Assembly (NCBI GenBank): GCA_951406725.2
Contig: OX597815.1
Coordinates: 56,420,001-56,484,000 of the forward strand
DNA from: Octopus vulgaris
Taxonomy: Eukaryota
Direction: 5' to 3'
Length of the DNA: 64,000 nucleotides
Position numbers and translations under genes: made by a program. Numbering within the stretch: the first letter of the stretch is position 1; each line of letters starts with the position of its first letter. Positions 33,590 to 44,993 of the stretch are shown piece after piece. Below the pieces are notes generated by a model. It was not told the DNA's origin. It did not search any database and saw only the letters and a list, made by a program, of their open reading frames with translations.

Positions 33590-34010
33590 TAAGAGCTTAG
33601 AAAATCTCCATAAAAGATAAAAGTAGTAATTATACTGAGAATTAAAGTTTGTTGCTGCTTTAACATGGCTGTTCCATACAAACTGACATTACTATAATTT
33701 TTAACCCAAGAGGAAGCTTCCTCTAGTTGTTTATTGATGCAATCTGCACCTGATATATGTTGCAAGCAAGGGAGCAAACCCCTACTATCTTCTAGCAATT
33801 TGACAGGACTAGCAGATCATCCAGTTTCGGGCTGTTTTTGCCCATCCTTAGTGCTAGAGATAGTAGTAGTTCATTCCAGATCACAGCATATAGAAAAATA
33901 AGTGACAATCAGTCACTAATCTTGCAACAGCTAGAGGAAGCTTCCTCTTGGGGTTAAAAATGGTAGTAACATTGGTTCATATGGAACAGCCATGTTGAAG
34001 TGGCAGCAAA
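33590..34010. repeat. Hammerhead-bearing dispersed repeat, with a partial inverted copy at 33930-34010
   Basis: Homologous to 35020-35215 and 41468-41708. Confidence 0.75.
33791..33858 (-). ncRNA. Type-I hammerhead ribozyme-like motif, copy 1
   Basis: TCTAGCA-CTAAGGA-T GGGC aaaaaca GCCC-GAAAC TGGA..TCCT GTC-AAAT-TGCTAGA; core G5>A. Confidence 0.6.
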
Positions 34011-34014
34011 TATT

Positions 34015-34790
34015 ATTATGAAGAGCCTTTTCAAAGAATGGTTTAAAAGCATTTTTTTTTTGGTCTTGCTATTGAAAAGTACAATGCCAGACATATTTCC
34101 AACAAAGCATTACTCCTTTTAGATAATGCACCAAAACATTTAGTGAATTGAAATGAACTTTCTGATAATGTGAGAGGAGAATATATTCCCAAGAATACAA
34201 CAGCTTTGCTCTAGTCAATGGATCAAAGTGTAATAGCAACTTCAAGACATATCTGAAAACTTCCTAACAACTTATTAAAGCAATTGACCAGGAGGATAAA
34301 TCTGCAATTAGAGACCTGGAATAAGTCCAACATAATTGACTGCGGATAACAGCCGACTGATGAGATGAATTGAAACCCTCAACTTTGAATGGCACTTAGA
34401 AAAGCATTTGGTCAGATTATATCCATGACTTTACAAGTTTTCCATGAGCAGAAAGGCTAAATCAAATTCATTAAGATATTGTGACACCTGCAAATGAAGT
34501 CACTGAGGACAAGGTGGCTGAGTTAGTAGTGACCCACAGAGAAAGTTTATCTGATCAGGAACTGATGTTATTAGAACAAGAGCAAGTTGAAATTACAGAA
34601 ATCTCCCCAACACCTCAACTTAAATTGTATAGGTTACTGCTATAGGATTTCCACTTACAAAGGAAGGTCTGCTGTCCCTTGCTGATAACAACCATAATAG
34701 TGAATGTAACATAAAAATTACAAGAGAAGTTTACAACGAGCTCAGTTCCTACACTGTGCTATACAGAAATGATACACCACAAACAACAAT
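34015..34790 (+). pseudogene. pogo/Tigger (DDE_1) transposase remnant
   Basis: FKEWF, KALLLLDNAPKH and YIPKNTTALL*SMDQSVIATF motifs. Confidence 0.8.
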
Positions 34791-35141
34791 TGTTGGTTAT
34801 GAACTCTAAGATGGAAGATAGTGTCACTCATCCTTCCAGTATTTCTCATTCTATCCATCACCATCCCTCAATATTCTCTATTATAATTCTTAATCCTTAA
34901 TGCATTTCTCTTTAAATGTTTTTATGTATACAATAGAATTTCACATTGTAAGATTTGCAGAAACACCTAGCCCCTGTAGCATGGGAAATTCCTGTATTAT
35001 AAAAGTCATTTCACTTCAGCAAGGCTGTTCCATATGGAATGATGTTACTACTCTTTATTAATCCCAGGAGAACACTTCCTCCAGCTGGTTAATGATACAA
35101 CCTGTATCCAATATATTGTGAGCAGTAGAGCAAACCCCTAC

Positions 35142-35212
35142 CATCTAGCAATTTAACAGGGCCAGTAGACCAGCCTGGTTTCAGGGTATTTGCCCTTCCT
35201 CAGTACTGGATG
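35142..35212 (-). ncRNA. Type-I hammerhead ribozyme-like motif, copy 2
   Basis: CATCCAGTA-CTGAGGA-AGGG caaata CCCT-GAAAC CAGG..CCTG TT-AAAT-TGCTAGATG; CUGANGA and GAAA intact. Confidence 0.62.
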
Positions 35213-35229
35213 CTTGTCTGCTAGAGATG

Positions 35230-38200
35230 ATTTTTTTATTATGAGAATATGTATCGAATACAGAAGGGACAGGACAATACAAACAAAAATAATGTAATAA
35301 TGAGTTCGAATGTGCCATACATTTTAAAAATTGATTATAAAATATATATATACAATATACGTTGACTTTTTTTTTTATTTCAAAGAGGGGATACACTCGG
35401 CAGCCTGAAAGGCTCAGCGGCTATCCTTTCTTTTTCTAATGCTGATTAAGTTGGGTTACTAACACCCACCTTTCTCATCACAGCTCATCGTTTCTCGAAC
35501 ACACTTCATGACAGGATTCTCCTTTCCAACCCTATCTTGCTTTTCAGATAGTATCTGAAGTAAAGTAGCAAACCAGGGCCAGAGATGAAGGATCCCATCA
35601 TGAATCCTTGCATTCACTCTTTCAACACTGCAACTGTACAGAGAAAACATGCCTCACCTTCCTTTGAGAGTCCAGTTGGCAGCACAATCTTTAACCAGGG
35701 CATCCCTAACCCAACCTTTAACAGTTCCTGGCTGCAGATGGAGCACCTCACAAGTGGCTTTCCTCCTTTCCACAATAAGAAAAGGAGGCATTCCAGCTTG
35801 TTTAGCCACGAGTCAGGTTAGGTGGTAGGTGATTACAGATGCAATAAACACCTGTACCACCTCTACCCTTCCTTTCAGGGACAGAGCCTGTCCGGACTAG
35901 GGCTTCCACCCTGTCTGCCACCTCACTTCAATTCTTCTCCATCTGGGAGACTGGTCCAAACCCAACTCCAAGCAACATAACAGGACCATCTGTCCAGTGA
36001 CCCACAACACTGGACGGTATCAACTTGCTCCTCCAGGTGCCGTGGCGCAAGCCAATGAACTTGTCCTTGTTAACTTTTGCCCCTGACCCATATCCTTTGA
36101 TAGCGTCCTCCACAGAAGGTAGCTGAGCTTCATTGGACACAATGATGGTGACGTCAACTGCATAAGCAGAGATTGACTTACCACATCTGATTTCATTGGG
36201 GATGCACCCCAAATTCTCCAACTACCACAGTTATGGCTCAAGAGCCAACACGTACAGCAGCAGAGACAGGGAACACTCTTGACGAACTGAGCATTTGATT
36301 GAAAATGGCTCTGACAGGTAGCTGTTAATCTGAATGGTAGATTTGATGCTGCTATACATTGTGGAGATCAACCTTCGGAAGTCCAGGCCCAGCTCAGCCA
36401 CTTCGAGGACTGCTGCTAAGTACTGGTTGTCTACCCTATCAGACACTTTACTTTGGTCTAAATAGACTAGTATCCCACCTTTGGCAGTTAATTTACCCAA
36501 CCAGTCTAAGGTGTAGTGTATAAGGTGAAGATTATCCTGGTTCGACCTGCCTGGAATGGTGCATGTCTGTGCCTTCCCGACAAGCTTCTCCAGAACACGT
36601 CAACCTTTTTGCTAACACCTTGGCCAAAATCTTTAACTCTACATAGAGTAGAGTTATGGGCCTGTAATTACTTAGAATGTCCTCCTTGCTTGGGTCCTTT
36701 TGGATCAGTATCACCACTCCCCGATTCACAGAGCAGGGAATCTTCCCATTCTGTTGCTAATTTGTGTAGACACTTGCCAGCAGGCCCTGAACAAGTCCGG
36801 CATGCTACAATAAAACTCATAGGGTAGCCCATCCAGCCCTGGCAACTTGTCCCTGGCGCACTCAGCCAACACCTCTTTGACCTCCACGTGTAATCGATCC
36901 TTCACATCATTCTGCCTCACGTGCCAAGAGTCGCAGCCCACCGATGAGGAAGCTCTTTAGGGACTCCCCATGCTCTAGCACGTCGCTCTGCCAAAACAAC
37001 CAGGTGAAATGCCTTTTGCATCTCATCCTGTCCATAGATCTTGTACCCCTGTTCATTAGTTTTATAGAGGCTTTTTTGCCCTTCTGACACTCCGCATGAT
37101 GGGCCCATCTGGCAATGTTAATACCGTCTCGGCCCACTGCACATAGCTTAGCTCTAACTCTGCAGCCTTTGTGTTTGGCTTTGAGGTGACAGTACAAGAC
37201 TGTTCTCACCACCAGTACTCCAGCTGCAGAGCCAGATTCCATAGCCTCATCTGAATTCTATTAGATTTAGCAATCAGATGATTGTTAAATCTAATAGACT
37301 CTAAATGAATGGCTTTCTTGAGACTGTGCCACCATCTATTATTAATGATGGTGCCACATAATGCCCTCTGTACTAAATCCTTAATCTAGGCACTGAAAAC
37401 TTCACAAGTCAAAATAGATTTGTTCATCTTCCAGTACCCGGGTCCCTGTCTATGACATTTATCTATATGTACCTCGCATGTCACAAATTTGTGATCTGTG
37501 TTAGGGACAATGCAAAATTGTGGACGACTAAAAGTATCCTTATCTCTATCTCTAACGAATATCCTATCTATGAGATCTGCGTGAGCAGTCGTTATTACTC
37601 CACGTCCACTGTGGAATGCTCGGCTCATCCAGTCTACTAGATTATAGTTTTCTAGTAAACCCTTGAGGCCAGGATTTCCCCTCCTATCAGTTGAGCCAAC
37701 ACTATCCACCCGTGCATCAAGGATAGTGTTAAAGTCTCCTAACAGAACTACCATTTTTGATGTCACTAGAAAGTGCTCTCGGTCTCGATAAAAACCAGAC
37801 TATCTACACTCCTAAGGAGCATAGACAGCTACCAACCTTCTAGGTCCATAAAGACTGTACTTACCTGTAAGTCCAAGGTCTTCCTGAGTAGGACCACTGT
37901 GCCCCCTCCTCCTCATCGGTTAGGAGAAATAAACTTCTCACAGCCATTCAGAAGAGGCAAGAATGCTTGTGGTTCACTCATCTTGGACTCAGTTACAATG
38001 GCCACATCTATACCTCATGACCTTAAGTCGTTCAGGAAACAAGCTTGTTTCCATTTCAACCCCAGGCCACACACATTTATGCACCCTAGCTTAATCAACA
38101 TGATGAATTTTATAGAAAGGAATTACTTACAATTTAAATTTGGGGAGAGGTTGCACAAATTCACCTGCCTCCCCATCCTTTTCTTTTACTGGTGAAGCCG

Positions 38201-39779
38201 CTGGGCTTTTCATTGGTGTAGCCACTAGGCTATTTGTTGGTATGGCTGCCAGGCTTACAATTAATTTTCCCTTTGCCACTTCAGTACTGACATCTCATAT
38301 ATTGTCTGGGTAACGCGCTTTCAGGTCTGTCAATAGGCTTTCATCTAATGAAATCTAATGCCTGTCGGTGTGTATTTCAATATTTTGTACACACATGCCT
38401 TATGGTGTGATCTAATTATTTTAGACATCACTTCATTTTTCTCTCTAAAGGCCACTGATTTTTCGTGTTTTGGGGGGTGGTTGATAAATGATTTTTACCA
38501 TGGGGTTGGGTTGGGGAGTTTTGTTGTGTGTGTTTGTTGCATACTTTGTTGATTTTTTTTATTGTAGGGGAGTCAGGGGCATGTGTCTTTTTTTGTTTAT
38601 GCGTGACTGTGGTAAAATCCAATTCTTCAGTTGTGTCTTTCTTCTCAGCTACTTTTCCTTCCTTCTTTGAAGCATTTCCCGGTTTGTCTGTTTTTTCTTT
38701 CATCTCCTTTGCAGCTTTTTGGGGAGGGACCTCATTAGCTTTTTTCTTTTTAGTGCACTTGGAGCAAACGTGGCTCTTTTCTCCACACTTGAAGCATTGG
38801 GGCCTACGTCCCTCCAGTTCCTCGCATTGATAGCCCCTTCCCTACAAATACTCTAGTGTTTCATTCGCAGCTAAGACTACCATTTCTAGTGTCTGGCCTT
38901 TCCAGTTTATTGCATCTTTTTTTCCATCTGTTAGATTGACACCTCCTCTTCTACGTCGTAAATCACAGCTGCTGCTACCCACATAACTTCAAGTCCTGCT
39001 GGGATTTCTTCAACCATAATTTTTACAGTTCTGCGTCTCGAGTATGTGAGTAGCAGCATTATCTCCTTGTTCTTTAGTGCCCTTGTTGACACCTCCTTGG
39101 CTACGTTAGCCATTTGTTACTGTGCTTTGACAGTCATACTTCGCGTTCCACAGCTAATGTAGCATACCCGATTCCATATTGGTGCCATGCACCATTCCAC
39201 CACTTTGTTCTTGGCTTCCATAATTCGCTTTTCCTTCAAGTTGTAGATTTTTATATACCACAGTTCTAGCATTAATTGCTTGTACCATTTCAGGAGGCAG
39301 CAACAGTTTAGTGTCGCTGCCACGTTTTTAAATCAAATTTCGGAACTTGAACAGTTGTTCCATTTTAACTTCTAACTCAGTCATGTCACCACCCACTGCA
39401 GCTGAAAAACTTTGTTTTTCCTGTGTTTCCTCATCATTACTTGTTAATCCTTTTCCCATGACAGGAAAATCCTTTCAGGATGCAATGTTGAATTCCATCA
39501 CAAAAACTTTATTTTTTTAAAAATCTTTGTCACAAATGACAAATTCAAAAAGATTAAGCCAGTAATGATTATAACAAACAGTTCAATAATAAGTTATTTA
39601 TTTTTCAAAATAATAATCCAACAGAAAATTCAACAGAATTTTCTGCCCTGTAGGGTGAAAATTACAGTTCAAATAACAACAAGTATTCAAAATACAACAC
39701 AAACGTGACATACAAAACAGACGAGAATGAACTCACATAACGTTTAGTAGCAAAATGTCACTCATGACGCAAAAAAAGA
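35230..39779 (-). mobile_element. Tx1/L1-clade LINE, near full length, decayed (ORF1 ~39460-38190, ORF2 38101-~35460)
   Basis: ORF1 zinc knuckle EGRRPQCFKCGEKSHVCSKC. ORF2 has INVCGL, LLGDFN, TDHK, GPGYWKMN, PGLDGLPYEFY, NYRPITLL, LDQSKVSDRV, VRQECSLS and SAYAVDV. Poly(A) at 35230 and 35366; 14-bp flanking duplication. Confidence 0.9.
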
Positions 39780-39793
39780 GTCTGCTAGAGATG

Positions 39794-41416
39794 TTTTCTT
39801 TATTATAGGAATAAAGCCTGAATTTAGAAAGGACACCACAGGACATGGGGTACATACAAACAATTAGTGAATGAATTATGAATTGTGAAAATAATGAGAA
39901 TGAAATGGCTTTCCTACCTACAAAGTGGGAAGTTCCATTTTACTGTTTTTACATAAATAATTATTTTTCCAGTTTGTATCATGTTTACACCAAAAATTCT
40001 ATTAACTCCTCGAACTTTATCACTGATGGTAGTTCATATCTAAATCGTAATGCTGTTATTTGTATCCTGTCTTTGAATATTTCTCTCAATCTACCTGCTC
40101 TCTCATCTTCCAGCAGCACTGCTTTCTCATTTTGTTTCCCCACCTTTTCGGCCAGCTTAATTCTTATAATGCCTTTCATCTTTGCAATTCCATGCTCTTT
40201 TTGTATGCAACCATAACTTTTTTGTATCTCCCCTTTGGTGGCTTTCTCGACTGTATTATCTCACTCTCTGCCTCTGTTGTTGGTATTTCTATCTCTACTT
40301 GTTCCTCTTTCTCACTTTCTAGTCTCTTCTTCCCTCTTTCCTTCTCCTTACTAGTTGAAGGCTCTGGTCTTTGCGTTTGATCTCCTGTTGATACCTCATT
40401 TTTTCTTTTTTCATTCTTATTTTCCTCCACCTTCCCATTCTTTTTTGGTGGAGAGTTGCTGTTTTTTCTCTTCCTTTCTACAACTGTAAACTCCTTTCCC
40501 TCCTCCGCCATTACGATCTCTTCTTCCCGACTCTCCTTCTCTGCCTCCCCCTGTTTGTGTTTCTGGGGACACTTGACTTACATGTGACCCCTTACTCCAC
40601 ATGCAAAACATATTGGAGGTCTACCTTCCACTATAATTCTCAGTCTGGTTTCGTCTGGTAAAACGAGTTCTTCAACAATCTTATGGGGGTCTGGTAAGCT
40701 GATTTGGACCATTACCTCTAGTCCATATCCCCACCAATTGACTTCCACAGTCTTTGACATTTTCAGGACTTCCGTATTGTAGAGTATGGCTACCACAAGC
40801 CATGCCTCGTCAATTTCAGGAGGCACTCTCCCTATCCTTACTCTGGCTGTATGTTTGCCACAGTAAGTAGGTAACAGTGCTCACTCCGCCGATTTCAAGG
40901 CTATGGTGGAGTATTTTTTAGCTTCATTCTCATTGACGAAGTGTACCTCCACTGTGCCGAACTTTCATCCTCTGGTATAGAACATGGTTATCTCCTTTAT
41001 CTCTTTTAAGCATTCCTCAACCACTTCTACGGTTGCTATCTCCACCTTCTTTGTTGCTATATTCAATGTTCTATATGTGATGGTTTTTCCTTTCTGCATT
41101 CTCAGTCACTTCTTTTGAGGGTGTCAGCCTTAGACATCCTCCCTCCTCTTTCAATAAGGTGTTATACTTCTTGAAGTCCCTGTCCTTGACTTCCAATTCA
41201 CATATCTGCAGTAGCTCCACTGACAGGCTTTTGCCCATCACCACAGCATAACTGCCTGTTTGTACTTATGTATCCATAACACCATTGTTCACAGCTTTAC
41301 CTATAAATTTTCACAAACACAGATAATCACAATATTCAACAATTCAGTAATTCAATGTAATAAAACAATAACTCACACACGAGTGAAATCAAGCACAATA
41401 ACACCGGTAAAGACGA
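39794..41416 (-). mobile_element. ORF1-only Tx1-related element (HAL1-like)
   Basis: EGRPPICFACGVRGHM knuckle and a K/E-rich C-terminus ending at 39985, then ~190 bp of 3' UTR and an A-rich tail. No EN or RT motifs. Confidence 0.75.
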
Positions 41417-41467
41417 GTCTGCAGTCGTTCACCCCATTGCACAATATTTAGAAAAATAAGCAACATT

Positions 41468-41708
41468 CAGTAGCTGGTTCTAAAATCTCTATAAGGGATG
41501 CAAGTAGTAACTCTACTGAAAAGTAATGTTTGTTGCCACTTCAACATGGCTGCATTGTTAACCAGCTGGAGGAGGCATTCTCCTGGGGTTAAAAAAGAGT
41601 AATAATGTCGTTCCGTGTAGAACAGCCATTGTTGAAGTGGCAACAAACATAACTTTTCAGTCGAGTTACTACTTGCATTTCTTATAGAGATTTTAGAACT
41701 AGCTGCTT
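41468..41708. repeat. Inverted pair (~85-bp arms, ~70-nt loop) of the hammerhead-associated repeat
   Basis: 41469-41552 is the near-identical reverse complement of ~41623-41708; the loop matches 33930-33985. Confidence 0.85.
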
Positions 41709-43269
41709 TGCTTGTTGAAAAGTCATTTTCTTTGTCATTGATCAACAGCCAACATACATAATGTGGGAATTTTTTATTTGATTACTGAGCCTGCTACAAA
41801 TAATAGGCCTTATTAAATTTCTTTCTTATCAAATTTTCGCAAGATTATTTTCAAAAAATGTAGTTGTGATGTAGTTTTCCAGAAATTAATAATAAAGAAG
41901 CTACAAGTATTTAAAATTATGTGATTTTAGCCAATTGGAAGGCTCCATCATGAGACAGACCAGAAATCATGATTGCTTGGCCCCATGAGAATTGCACACA
42001 TGAAACCTTTACATAATGTCTCAATAGGTAAGAAATAACAGCTAAATTTTCTTTAAACTACACCATGTCTAAAATGACAAAACTGGTGCCACAGTAGTTT
42101 TATTCTTTGCTGGAAGCAGACCTAGTTAGTGTTATGTAAATTAAAGACATCTACCTCAAAGACAACCTTCATGGATATAAACTTTAATTGGAGGAGGTGT
42201 AGGATATGCACTCCATAACCTTTTGATTTACTAAAAAAATTTTCTACGGAGTCTGACGTTTTTAACAATAGGCATGGTTATGCCAAAATATCAGAATTTC
42301 AAAATTTAAATTGCCTACAACCCCACCATTTTTTCGTTTCCCACTTTTTTTCAGAAAAATTTTTTTTGACTTGCATGTAGAAAATTACAAAAATTATTTA
42401 GCTGGAAGGTCATTTCGCTGGGCCTTTTAATACAAACCAAAAACAAGCTTCCAATTAACAGTGGTACTTTATTCTTCAGTTAAATAAAATTACACAACAG
42501 ACCAGATAAATGTGTCACAAAGAAAATGTGAACTGTAGAAAATCATTCATAGATGGCTTTTCATCTCAGTCAAACTTGGTTACACATGCTTCAACAGGTA
42601 CAAAAATAATGTGACATGGCTTCCTGAAAACAAAGTCTCCCCTCTCCATGCTCTCTCTCGCCTTATGGTGAAAATGAAAAATTTCATATTATTTATTGAC
42701 AAAATGAGGCTAACATTTTTAATTTGTTGCATCTGGTGGTTTATTTTGCAACACAATTAGATATGCATTTCATAACCCACATAAAACTAGACCAATCCAA
42801 AAGTATTTCTGTGTCACATGACTAGTCACATGACCAATCATTAGAGACTTATGCCTGGAGCCGATTTCTGAGTATTTAAGTCTAAACATGCAATTATATT
42901 TCGGAAAAAAAATTTTTTCTAAAATTTCTATTTTTTGATAAAACTACACTCCTCCCCCATCCACATACATTCATACCAATATTCTGAATGCTCTGAAACT
43001 TGTTTGCTCATTTTCACATGCTTGAGTGATTTCCAACCAGCGCATGAAAAGAGCTTGATGTGGTCTCTCCACAAGCAAGAAATTACAGCCAAATCTGAGA
43101 TGTCGAACATGCACACACCACATTTGTTTTCTTGCATTTGACAATGGAGATTACAATTTTGCCAAAGAAAAATAAACAAAAAACAGCATATCCGAATTTC
43201 AATCCCTCTTCCCCATTTTTCCAAACCTTTTTATATTTCACATTATTTCACAGCAATACAAGGAAGTCA

Positions 43270-44124: not shown

Positions 44125-44500
44125 ATTCCAGAAGGTTTGAGACTTTTTAGGAGAGACATTTATTAATTTCAAAGAAGTACAAAGCTCTAATTTTTTTCAA
44201 AGTAGGATCTTATGACTTCAAAGCACTCGTCATAGTGCTCCAGCCACTTTGTAAAAGCCCCACAGAAATCCGCTAAAGTGAAGGTGTCCAAGATCATTGT
44301 CACAGACTACTTCATCTCAATATCTTCAAAACGACTGCCTCTAAGGTGCTCCTTCAGCTTGTGGAACAACCAAAAGTTGCAGGGAACAAGGTCTGGACTG
44401 TGAAGAGAGTCAGGGACAGTTTTGATACCCATCTCTGTCAAGTAATTGGTTACCAGGGTGAGAATGTGGACTGGTGCAGGTACCACTGATCCAAGTGGAC
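44125..44500 (-). pseudogene. mariner (DD34D) transposase C-terminal remnant
   Basis: APVH..LVTNYL..HSPDLVPCNFWLFHKLKEHLRGSRFED. Confidence 0.85.
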
Positions 44501-44517
44501 GAACTCTATCTGCTGGT

Positions 44518-44993
44518 GATATGTCATAAAGGAAAATGTCTTGCCAGGCATGACAATTTTTACTAACAAATGGATCAGTTGTTGAAGTCTCCACCAACTT
44601 GGTTACATTCACAGAATAGTGATTCATGCCAAGAATTTTGTGGATCCAAGTACTGGGGTATGCACCAACCATACCAAGGCTGATTGGTTTCATATAAAAA
44701 GATACCTAAAATAAATAAGTGAATCGATAGGGAAAATGAGGCAGTCTCACATAGCAATGTACGAAGAATTTATGTGATTCAAACAGTATGTAACATGAAA
44801 TTTCTTCAATATTATATCAAATTATTTTTTCTTTCTTTTTCATTGTATCTGCATTCAATACAGATGACCATCATAGCTTCTATTTTGGACTATTCTGGAC
44901 TGAATGTTGCCAAGTTAGTGGAGATTCTGATAATTAGCCTGATAATTGGTGAAAATTGTCATACCTGGCAAGACATTTTTCTTTATGACACAT
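44518..44993. mobile_element. MITE with ~100-bp TIRs
   Basis: GATATGTCATAAAGGAAAATGTCTTGCCAGGCATGACAATTTT is mirrored at 44950-44993. Confidence 0.75.

Follow-up and report, generated by a model that had tools for sequence, protein, structure and literature searches.

Long interspersed nuclear elements (LINEs) of the Tx1 group are known to insert into fixed targets, among them other transposons, the U2 and U5 small nuclear RNA (snRNA) genes, 5S genes and microsatellites, as described in PMC4494074, PMC4640811 and PMC6719617. Site-specific LINEs are held to choose such targets through the sequence specificity of their endonuclease. Insertion that is positioned by a promoter is described for Ty3, TRE5-A and NLTR-A at genes of RNA polymerase III (Pol III), and the ORF1 protein of TRE5-A binds TFIIIB (PMC5911963). 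For Octopus vulgaris, PMC13282606 counts active L1-Tx1 families, and the part of it that was consulted mentions neither targets nor ribozymes; PMC8557442 and PMC8869645 are used as background only. Here we describe two L1/Tx1-type elements, E1 and E2, that are stacked in a repeat with a type I hammerhead ribozyme motif. They lie in a window of 64,000 nucleotides (nt) of the O. vulgaris genome (contig OX597815.1, positions 56,420,001 to 56,484,000), which was compared with the 2.8-Gb assembly. Judging from sequence comparison, the base at which this family inserts probably marks where an snRNA-type promoter starts transcription, and it is this kind of promoter that the family likely seeks.

The sequence GTCTGCTAGAGATG occurs exactly at 35216-35229 and 39780-39793, as the original prediction had it, and has no other match in the window at two mismatches or fewer. 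E1 and E2 stand in tandem on the minus strand and share the hammerhead's orientation, with 14-bp duplications between them, which bears out the claim that two elements inserted at the same site in the same orientation. The hexamer at 41417, where the target was thought to recur, proves to be the remnant of a third duplication copy that has lost 10 nt, and all 14 nt are kept in a related copy (L022/L093). Taken from the window alone this evidence is weak, as 4 of 100 shuffled windows reach two matches of the 14-mer. Genome-wide, the 14-mer has 132 exact matches compared to 6 for a reversed control. Inspected by eye, the first 30 genomic matches include 25 where no LINE ends at the 14-mer and 26 that continue into hammerhead-shaped sequence. 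The 14-mer is thus found mostly at empty sites of the hammerhead repeat and is host sequence, which disposes of the concern that it might be part of the elements' own termini. In an independent insertion of the E2 family (L022/L093 with L032) the 14-mer flanks the element at both ends, with one change in one of the two copies, and the 14-mer is therefore a target-site duplication. The upstream copy is intact at the 5' end of L093 and carries one substitution in L092.

To describe the targets of the E1 family we used the top 30 of 40 scored matches, and 25 were left after the window itself and four copies without a 3' end were set aside. Hammerhead repeats of subfamilies A-E adjoin 19 of the 25, one of which lacks the first 19 host bases. 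Four more, two of which form a duplicated pair, adjoin the target motif with other sequence after it, and two lie elsewhere. The flanks are nonrandom, contrary to one outcome against which the original prediction was to be checked, and their share is above the 20% of flanks of one type beyond which Kojima (2015) treats a family as target-specific. Site-specific, same-orientation stacking of L1/Tx1-type LINEs in the hammerhead repeat is supported. The nearest relatives of E2 (L032/L093, L092) are also at the A site, and remoter ones are at other recurring flanks. Two such flanks were seen (L033, L034, L040, L045; L048, L051-L056), and an Rfam search on the first of these groups gave no match. 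In all, fewer than 100 copies were looked at, out of two first-look candidate lists of 673 and 19,026.

A stack of this kind could also arise if LINE and repeat moved as one composite, or by segmental duplication. One pair (L062/L063) is indeed a duplication and some arrays have near-identical units. However, duplications flank each insertion, different LINE lineages occupy different subfamilies, 5'-truncated copies are found at the site as well, and most copies of the repeat are empty. The independent flanks largely refute this explanation, and we consider it very improbable.

The host repeat has a unit of approximately 350-400 bp and is often found with an inverted partial copy. Partial dimers were seen, and most sampled copies are monomers or partial; subfamily A alone has 1,523 first-look candidates. 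At least nine homologous subfamilies serve as LINE flanks (A-I; these letters and the predicted +1 are labels of the present analysis), each with the shape of a type I hammerhead. The duplications are 14-22 bp long, and the insertions use the same base, orientation and position across nine homologous subfamilies. Among 21 hand-picked copies, each stem I position pairs in 17-21, through several types of pair and with a fixed spacing to the core, although these counts lean upward as the cut site was chosen for maximal pairing. The core begins 25-26 nt after the site in 19 of the 21 copies, at 33 nt in subfamily H and at 10 nt in window copy 1. The predicted cut falls 47-66 nt past the site across subfamilies.

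In the window both hammerhead-shaped motifs of the original prediction were found again by a descriptor match. In copy 2 the core begins 25 nt after the predicted +1, and the cut is predicted between 35168 and 35167, 61 nt past the duplication start. Copy 1 has a promoter-like motif 59 nt before the site, one core change in its hammerhead and a deletion of approximately 16 nt, which gives it the short distance from site to core. It is only through this deletion that a 10-mer of the target (33852-33861) pairs as the stem I strand of copy 1; the pairing itself was correctly noted. Two distances were amended. Stem I of copy 2 (35209) lies 6 nt rather than 3 nt beyond the end of the 14-mer, and the host repeat resumes, by reading of the sequence, at about 41421 rather than 41468. 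Rfam did not detect the hammerhead motifs in the window and found nothing in 20 target loci. Folding gave an uninformative z-score of -0.58 for window copy 2, and -4.18 for an empty copy. On its sequence the repeat fits the non-LTR (long terminal repeat) retrozymes and is best called retrozyme-like; the described retrozymes are repeats of 150-450 bp, 350-390 bp in mussel (PMC7229834), and for newt satellite 2 the promoter has been described as snRNA-type (cited in PMC2220036).

Sisters of these LINEs are found in snRNA genes. The intact elements L271, L272 and L347/348 are inserted at the U2 +1 with the first bases of the gene duplicated, and L351 adjoins position 1 of U1, where only the 3' junction is seen. 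L271 and L272 are 99.0-99.1% identical over 5.55 kb to L283, which is in the repeat, and the two targets share few bases. The endonucleases of L272 and L283 differ by three residues and a one-residue gap, and one copy in the U2 array differs from L283 by 0.10% over 2 kb. ATCAGT, with at most one mismatch, is present 57-61 nt before +1 in each of the 48 U1/U2 loci that have no insertion. Among 19 filled 5' repeat junctions picked by hand, 18 have the best match to a matrix built from these 48 loci at 56-60 nt before the site. At empty A sites the motif lies within -66 to -52 in 28 of 48, compared to a mean of 5.2 and a maximum of 11 in shuffles. Insertion keeps a fixed distance from the motif (-56 to -60), like that of the U1/U2 +1, except at about 17 of about 41 young sites. 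In subfamily H the motif, which resembles a proximal sequence element (PSE), stays at about -57 from the site while the hammerhead core shifts to +33. Given that the H site tracks the PSE-like motif and that U1 and U2 have no ribozyme, the ribozyme is probably not the targeting cue. The original prediction of a LINE family that targets a ribozyme-bearing repeat is therefore supported for the site-specific stacking in the E1 family, and is not supported for the ribozyme as what defines the target. The family likely aims, to go by these sequences, at the start of a shared promoter type and not at a self-cutting RNA.

From these data we lean, with moderate confidence, towards a model in which a promoter-bound complex together with a weak endonuclease preference would place the insertion, and the LINE would be transcribed from the captured promoter. 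The rule accepted for site-specific LINEs is choice led by the endonuclease (PMC4494074, PMC7265360). Applied here, classical Tx1 targeting would mean that the endonuclease reads the DNA, that elements drift among multicopy repeats, and that the overlap with +1 reflects selection for gaining a promoter. We consider this unlikely, but it deserves serious weight. A short core is common to targets A, B, C and D, the G/I repeats begin with the same few bases as U2, and some sisters are at targets without a PSE. Most clades keep to one target subfamily (B, D, F, G, H, X), though A and C targets occur together in one starred clade of E1 relatives. The difficulty for this explanation is that elements 99% identical to each other are found in U2 and in the repeat with largely different duplicated bases. 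Additionally, the consensus of all targets is too short for the choice of a site in 2.8 Gb, and although U1, U2 and the repeats have no sequence relationship, they are entered at the same promoter-relative base.

Several findings besides the fidelity of most clades weigh against promoter-led placement. The repeat subfamilies are homologous, which means that the 18 of 19 junctions with the motif are not 19 independent tests. The motif is at -56 to -60 in 5 of 7 filled A sites compared to 19 of 48 empty ones, and neither the window's own filled site nor L379 has it. In the E2 family only 3 of 22 relatives with a 3' end adjoin hammerhead repeats, which does not reach Kojima's 20%. Our count of about 41 young sites, which were non-random picks from 150 matches, comprises about 20 hammerhead repeats, 4 snRNA +1 sites and about 17 other fixed targets; the roughly 17 sites lacking the PSE-like motif at that distance mostly lack a TATA box too. 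One sister group (L279, L345) is found 30 nt behind a TATA box. The age order within tandem arrays agrees with addition on the promoter side in two of six arrays (C5, C27), and the polarity does not fit in C9 and the U2 array and is ambiguous in two others. Finally, an asymmetry between duplication copies, described next, amounts to three cases.

In the young insertions L283, L360 and L365 the two duplications are unequal, and the 5' copy is nearer to the common donor type. L132 and L142 have apparent relics of earlier duplications at their 5' ends. Together, the donor-type 5' duplications and the relics fit an RNA that starts at the +1 of the target. They are also compatible with a memory carried by the RNA, in which LINE RNA would run from the upstream duplication through the downstream one to the hammerhead cut, and with target sequence at both ends would anneal to the nicked target and fix the site. 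The elements lack true poly(A) and join the target very precisely at their 3' ends, which sets them apart from the Keno-type contigs L402 and L399. The hammerhead lies in the sense orientation, is predicted to cut shortly past the site and has a stem I that co-varies across subfamilies, and R1Bm requires downstream target sequence for accurate reverse transcription (PMC7265360). Despite this, we regard such a memory as quite doubtful. U1, U2 and other targets have no hammerhead and their junctions are equally precise, recent switching between U2 and the repeat opposes strict guidance, and many target hammerheads carry core changes. In the three mismatched cases, moreover, it is the 5' copy that looks donor-derived.

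In the promoter-led model, the PSE, bound by SNAPc or by a pre-initiation complex, would bring an endonuclease of weak sequence specificity to +1. A LINE inserted there would have the host promoter immediately upstream, and the duplicated host bases would form the start of its RNA. The duplication copy on the upstream side would remain at +1 and be open to a new insertion, which could produce tandem stacks such as the one in the window. As it has no ORF2, E2 would have depended on mobilisation in trans. Read-through RNA would be cut by the hammerhead 61 nt past the duplication start, and targeting would not need the hammerhead. A more complete version, in which the LINE docks on SNAPc-type complexes, inserts at the +1 of U1, U2 and the retrozyme, takes over the promoter, keeps its last site in the 5' end of its RNA and has its read-through trimmed by the host hammerhead, is tentative and, as a whole, rather unlikely. 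Were it true, the LINE would be a parasite of a parasite, supplied by its target with both a promoter and RNA processing and able to change targets while its endonuclease stays the same.

The features of the site are collected in Table 1. The remnants of E1 ORF2 are 50-79% identical to an intact ORF2 of 1148 amino acids (aa), with residues ~869-1060 missing. An intact relative (L277) encodes an ORF1 with zf-CCHC and an ORF2 with Exo_endo_phos, RVT_1 and zf-RVT. This is the layout of the Tx1 clade (a CCHC ORF1, and an ORF2 with APE endonuclease, reverse transcriptase (RT) and C-terminal zinc region), and it is common to L1 too. The best match to a named protein is Tx1L of Xenopus (30% identity, E-value 1e-91). 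In an RT tree of 63 rows with only two named references the backbone is open and the Tx1L branch is long, and on this basis 'Tx1-like' is a statement of resemblance rather than of clade membership. The original prediction counted two elements and possibly a third at 35230-35364. The two stand, and the third is excluded, as relatives of E1 carry the same sequence after an internal A-run and it belongs to the 3' untranslated region (UTR). It also had the elements end in poly(A). E1, E2 and their copies have no true poly(A) tail and end 3-8 nt, similar among copies, after a hexamer resembling a polyadenylation signal. Copies of 1.4-1.7 kb that are colinear with E2 occur elsewhere in the genome at 78-87% identity, and together with the presence of ORF1 only this makes E2 a member of a non-autonomous family.

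Table 1. Features of the stacked insertion site and of the host repeat in the window.
Feature	Positions	Strand	Remarks
Unoccupied host repeat copy 1	33809..33920	-	promoter-like motif 33915-33920, site 33861, hammerhead 33809-33857
Host hammerhead repeat, 3' part	35012..35215	-	subfamily A (retrozyme-like)
Type I hammerhead copy 2	35162..35209	-	predicted; 6-bp stem I, intact core from 35203, 4-bp stem II, short stem III
Downstream 14-bp duplication copy	35216..35229	-	first transcribed host-repeat bases if +1 is 35228 (predicted)
E1, decayed full-length L1/Tx1-type LINE	35230..39779	-	4550 bp, many frameshifts and stops
E1 3' UTR	35230..35448	-	includes stretch earlier taken for a third element
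E1 ORF2 remnants (APE endonuclease, RT, C-terminus)	35449..38113	-	by comparison with an intact relative
E1 ORF1 remnants	38180..39440	-	CCHC knuckle in frame 38428-38841; outer limits approximate
Middle 14-bp duplication copy	39780..39793	-	between E2 3' end and E1 5' end
E2, 1623-bp element	39794..41416	-	ORF1 remnants (CCHC knuckle in frame 40578-40880), 3' UTR, no ORF2
Upstream duplication remnant	41417..41422	-	10 nt deleted between two GC dinucleotides
Host repeat, 5' part, with inverted partial copy	41421..41710	-	promoter-like motif expected 59 nt before site missing

Further observations were made on the LINEs and their targets. Near-intact LINEs of 5.3 kb stand in tandem arrays of 3-10 copies, each array at a single site in a repeat, at G000:C9:59.20-59.25 Mb, C5:29.18-29.21 Mb, C27:38.30-38.32 Mb and C1:77.36-77.38 Mb. 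A copy in C9 is 0.05% from a copy in C27 at a different target, which could reflect a target switch or gene conversion. The sister LINEs L279, L345/L346 and L359 lie in a repeated sequence where an ATG follows the site closely, possibly a multicopy promoter of RNA polymerase II. For U6, the majority of 13 loci have the look of retrocopies and no U6 motif was built; most of the top U6 matches (L311-L330) likewise resemble retrocopies, many of them followed by the same short repeat sequence.

The host repeat was also considered as the pseudo-LTR of a young Penelope-like family near L016/L017, and was rejected as such, as none of 30 copies has the repeat after the ORF; this covers the one young family only. 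That family (G000:C2:52533970-52536297, L181:1472-3798) is very young and has an RT, a zinc-finger linker and, at the C-terminus, a GIY-YIG. It has 150 matches, copies 95-99% identical, ORFs of up to ~850 aa and a microsatellite-like 3' region, and no hammerhead core was found in the four loci checked. Between the two hammerhead copies of the window, at 34060-34800, there is by eye an apparent decayed transposase fragment, probably of the pogo/Tigger type. A frame at 44307-44705 on the minus strand resembles the C-terminus of a mariner transposase.

A young lineage with intact copies enters unrelated snRNA-type genes at their first base, and at 99% identity its members occupy both U2 and a ribozyme repeat; this makes targeting by a promoter complex directly testable in an animal. 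The findings also suggest that retrozyme-like repeats of invertebrates have an snRNA-type promoter; a retrozyme paper searched for promoter terms names none. An integrase that works by target-primed reverse transcription and is positioned by promoters could serve those who build tools for targeted insertion. If the endonuclease alone explains the targeting, the finding shrinks to a new type of target for Tx1-like elements.

Among distant relatives in 80 metagenome loci (22-49% identical), 12 were scanned with Rfam, and 2 of these were found inside U2 and none at +1. The two contigs (L402:5852, L399:4758) have LINEs with poly(A) tails approximately 30 nt inside U2, a position that we take to be the Keno site. 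L402 shows the promoter side and 5' part of U2, with some U2 bases missing at the junction. Keno (of the Tx1 clade) and Utopia likewise insert into U2 snRNA genes, sometimes in tandem (PMC4640811), and share a site inside the gene. The sisters described here are instead at the +1 of U2 and U1, where the duplication leaves the whole coding sequence downstream. Our literature search, which did not extend to Repbase, supplements or subscription papers, found no report of LINEs at hammerhead repeats or at an snRNA +1.

R2 has a ribozyme of its own at its 5' end, whereas the ribozyme here is the host's and lies downstream of the LINE. R2 and R1, which are co-transcribed with their target, otherwise resemble this family in the apparent reliance on a host promoter and possibly in having flanking target sequence in the RNA (PMC4494074, PMC7265360). 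TRE5-A and NLTR-A (L1 clade, Dictyostelium) and yeast Ty3 likewise insert at a fixed place relative to a promoter, Ty3 within 1-4 nt from the start (PMC5911963). Their promoters are those of Pol III tRNA and 5S genes, and TRE5 inserts antisense 44-54 bp upstream (PMC5911963), whereas the promoter here is predicted to be of the PSE/snRNA type and insertion is in the sense orientation. The host repeat resembles non-LTR retrozymes and newt satellite 2 in its predicted type I hammerhead, its unit of ~350-400 bp and its snRNA-like promoter motif (PMC7229834, bioRxiv 10.64898/2026.07.22.740005, PMC2220036); partial copies, inverted or in some cases tandem, were seen as well. The closest parallels to the LINEs themselves are Tx1L of Xenopus, which inserts into Tx1D, and the crocodilian Tx1-Mar, Tx1-9_AMi and Tx1-8_Crp (Kojima 2015, PMC4494074), each an APE-RT LINE with a fixed place in a mobile repeat. 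What sets the octopus family apart from these is that its target is a hammerhead repeat, that the predicted start in this target is shared with U1 and U2, and that a single lineage occupies many unlike targets.

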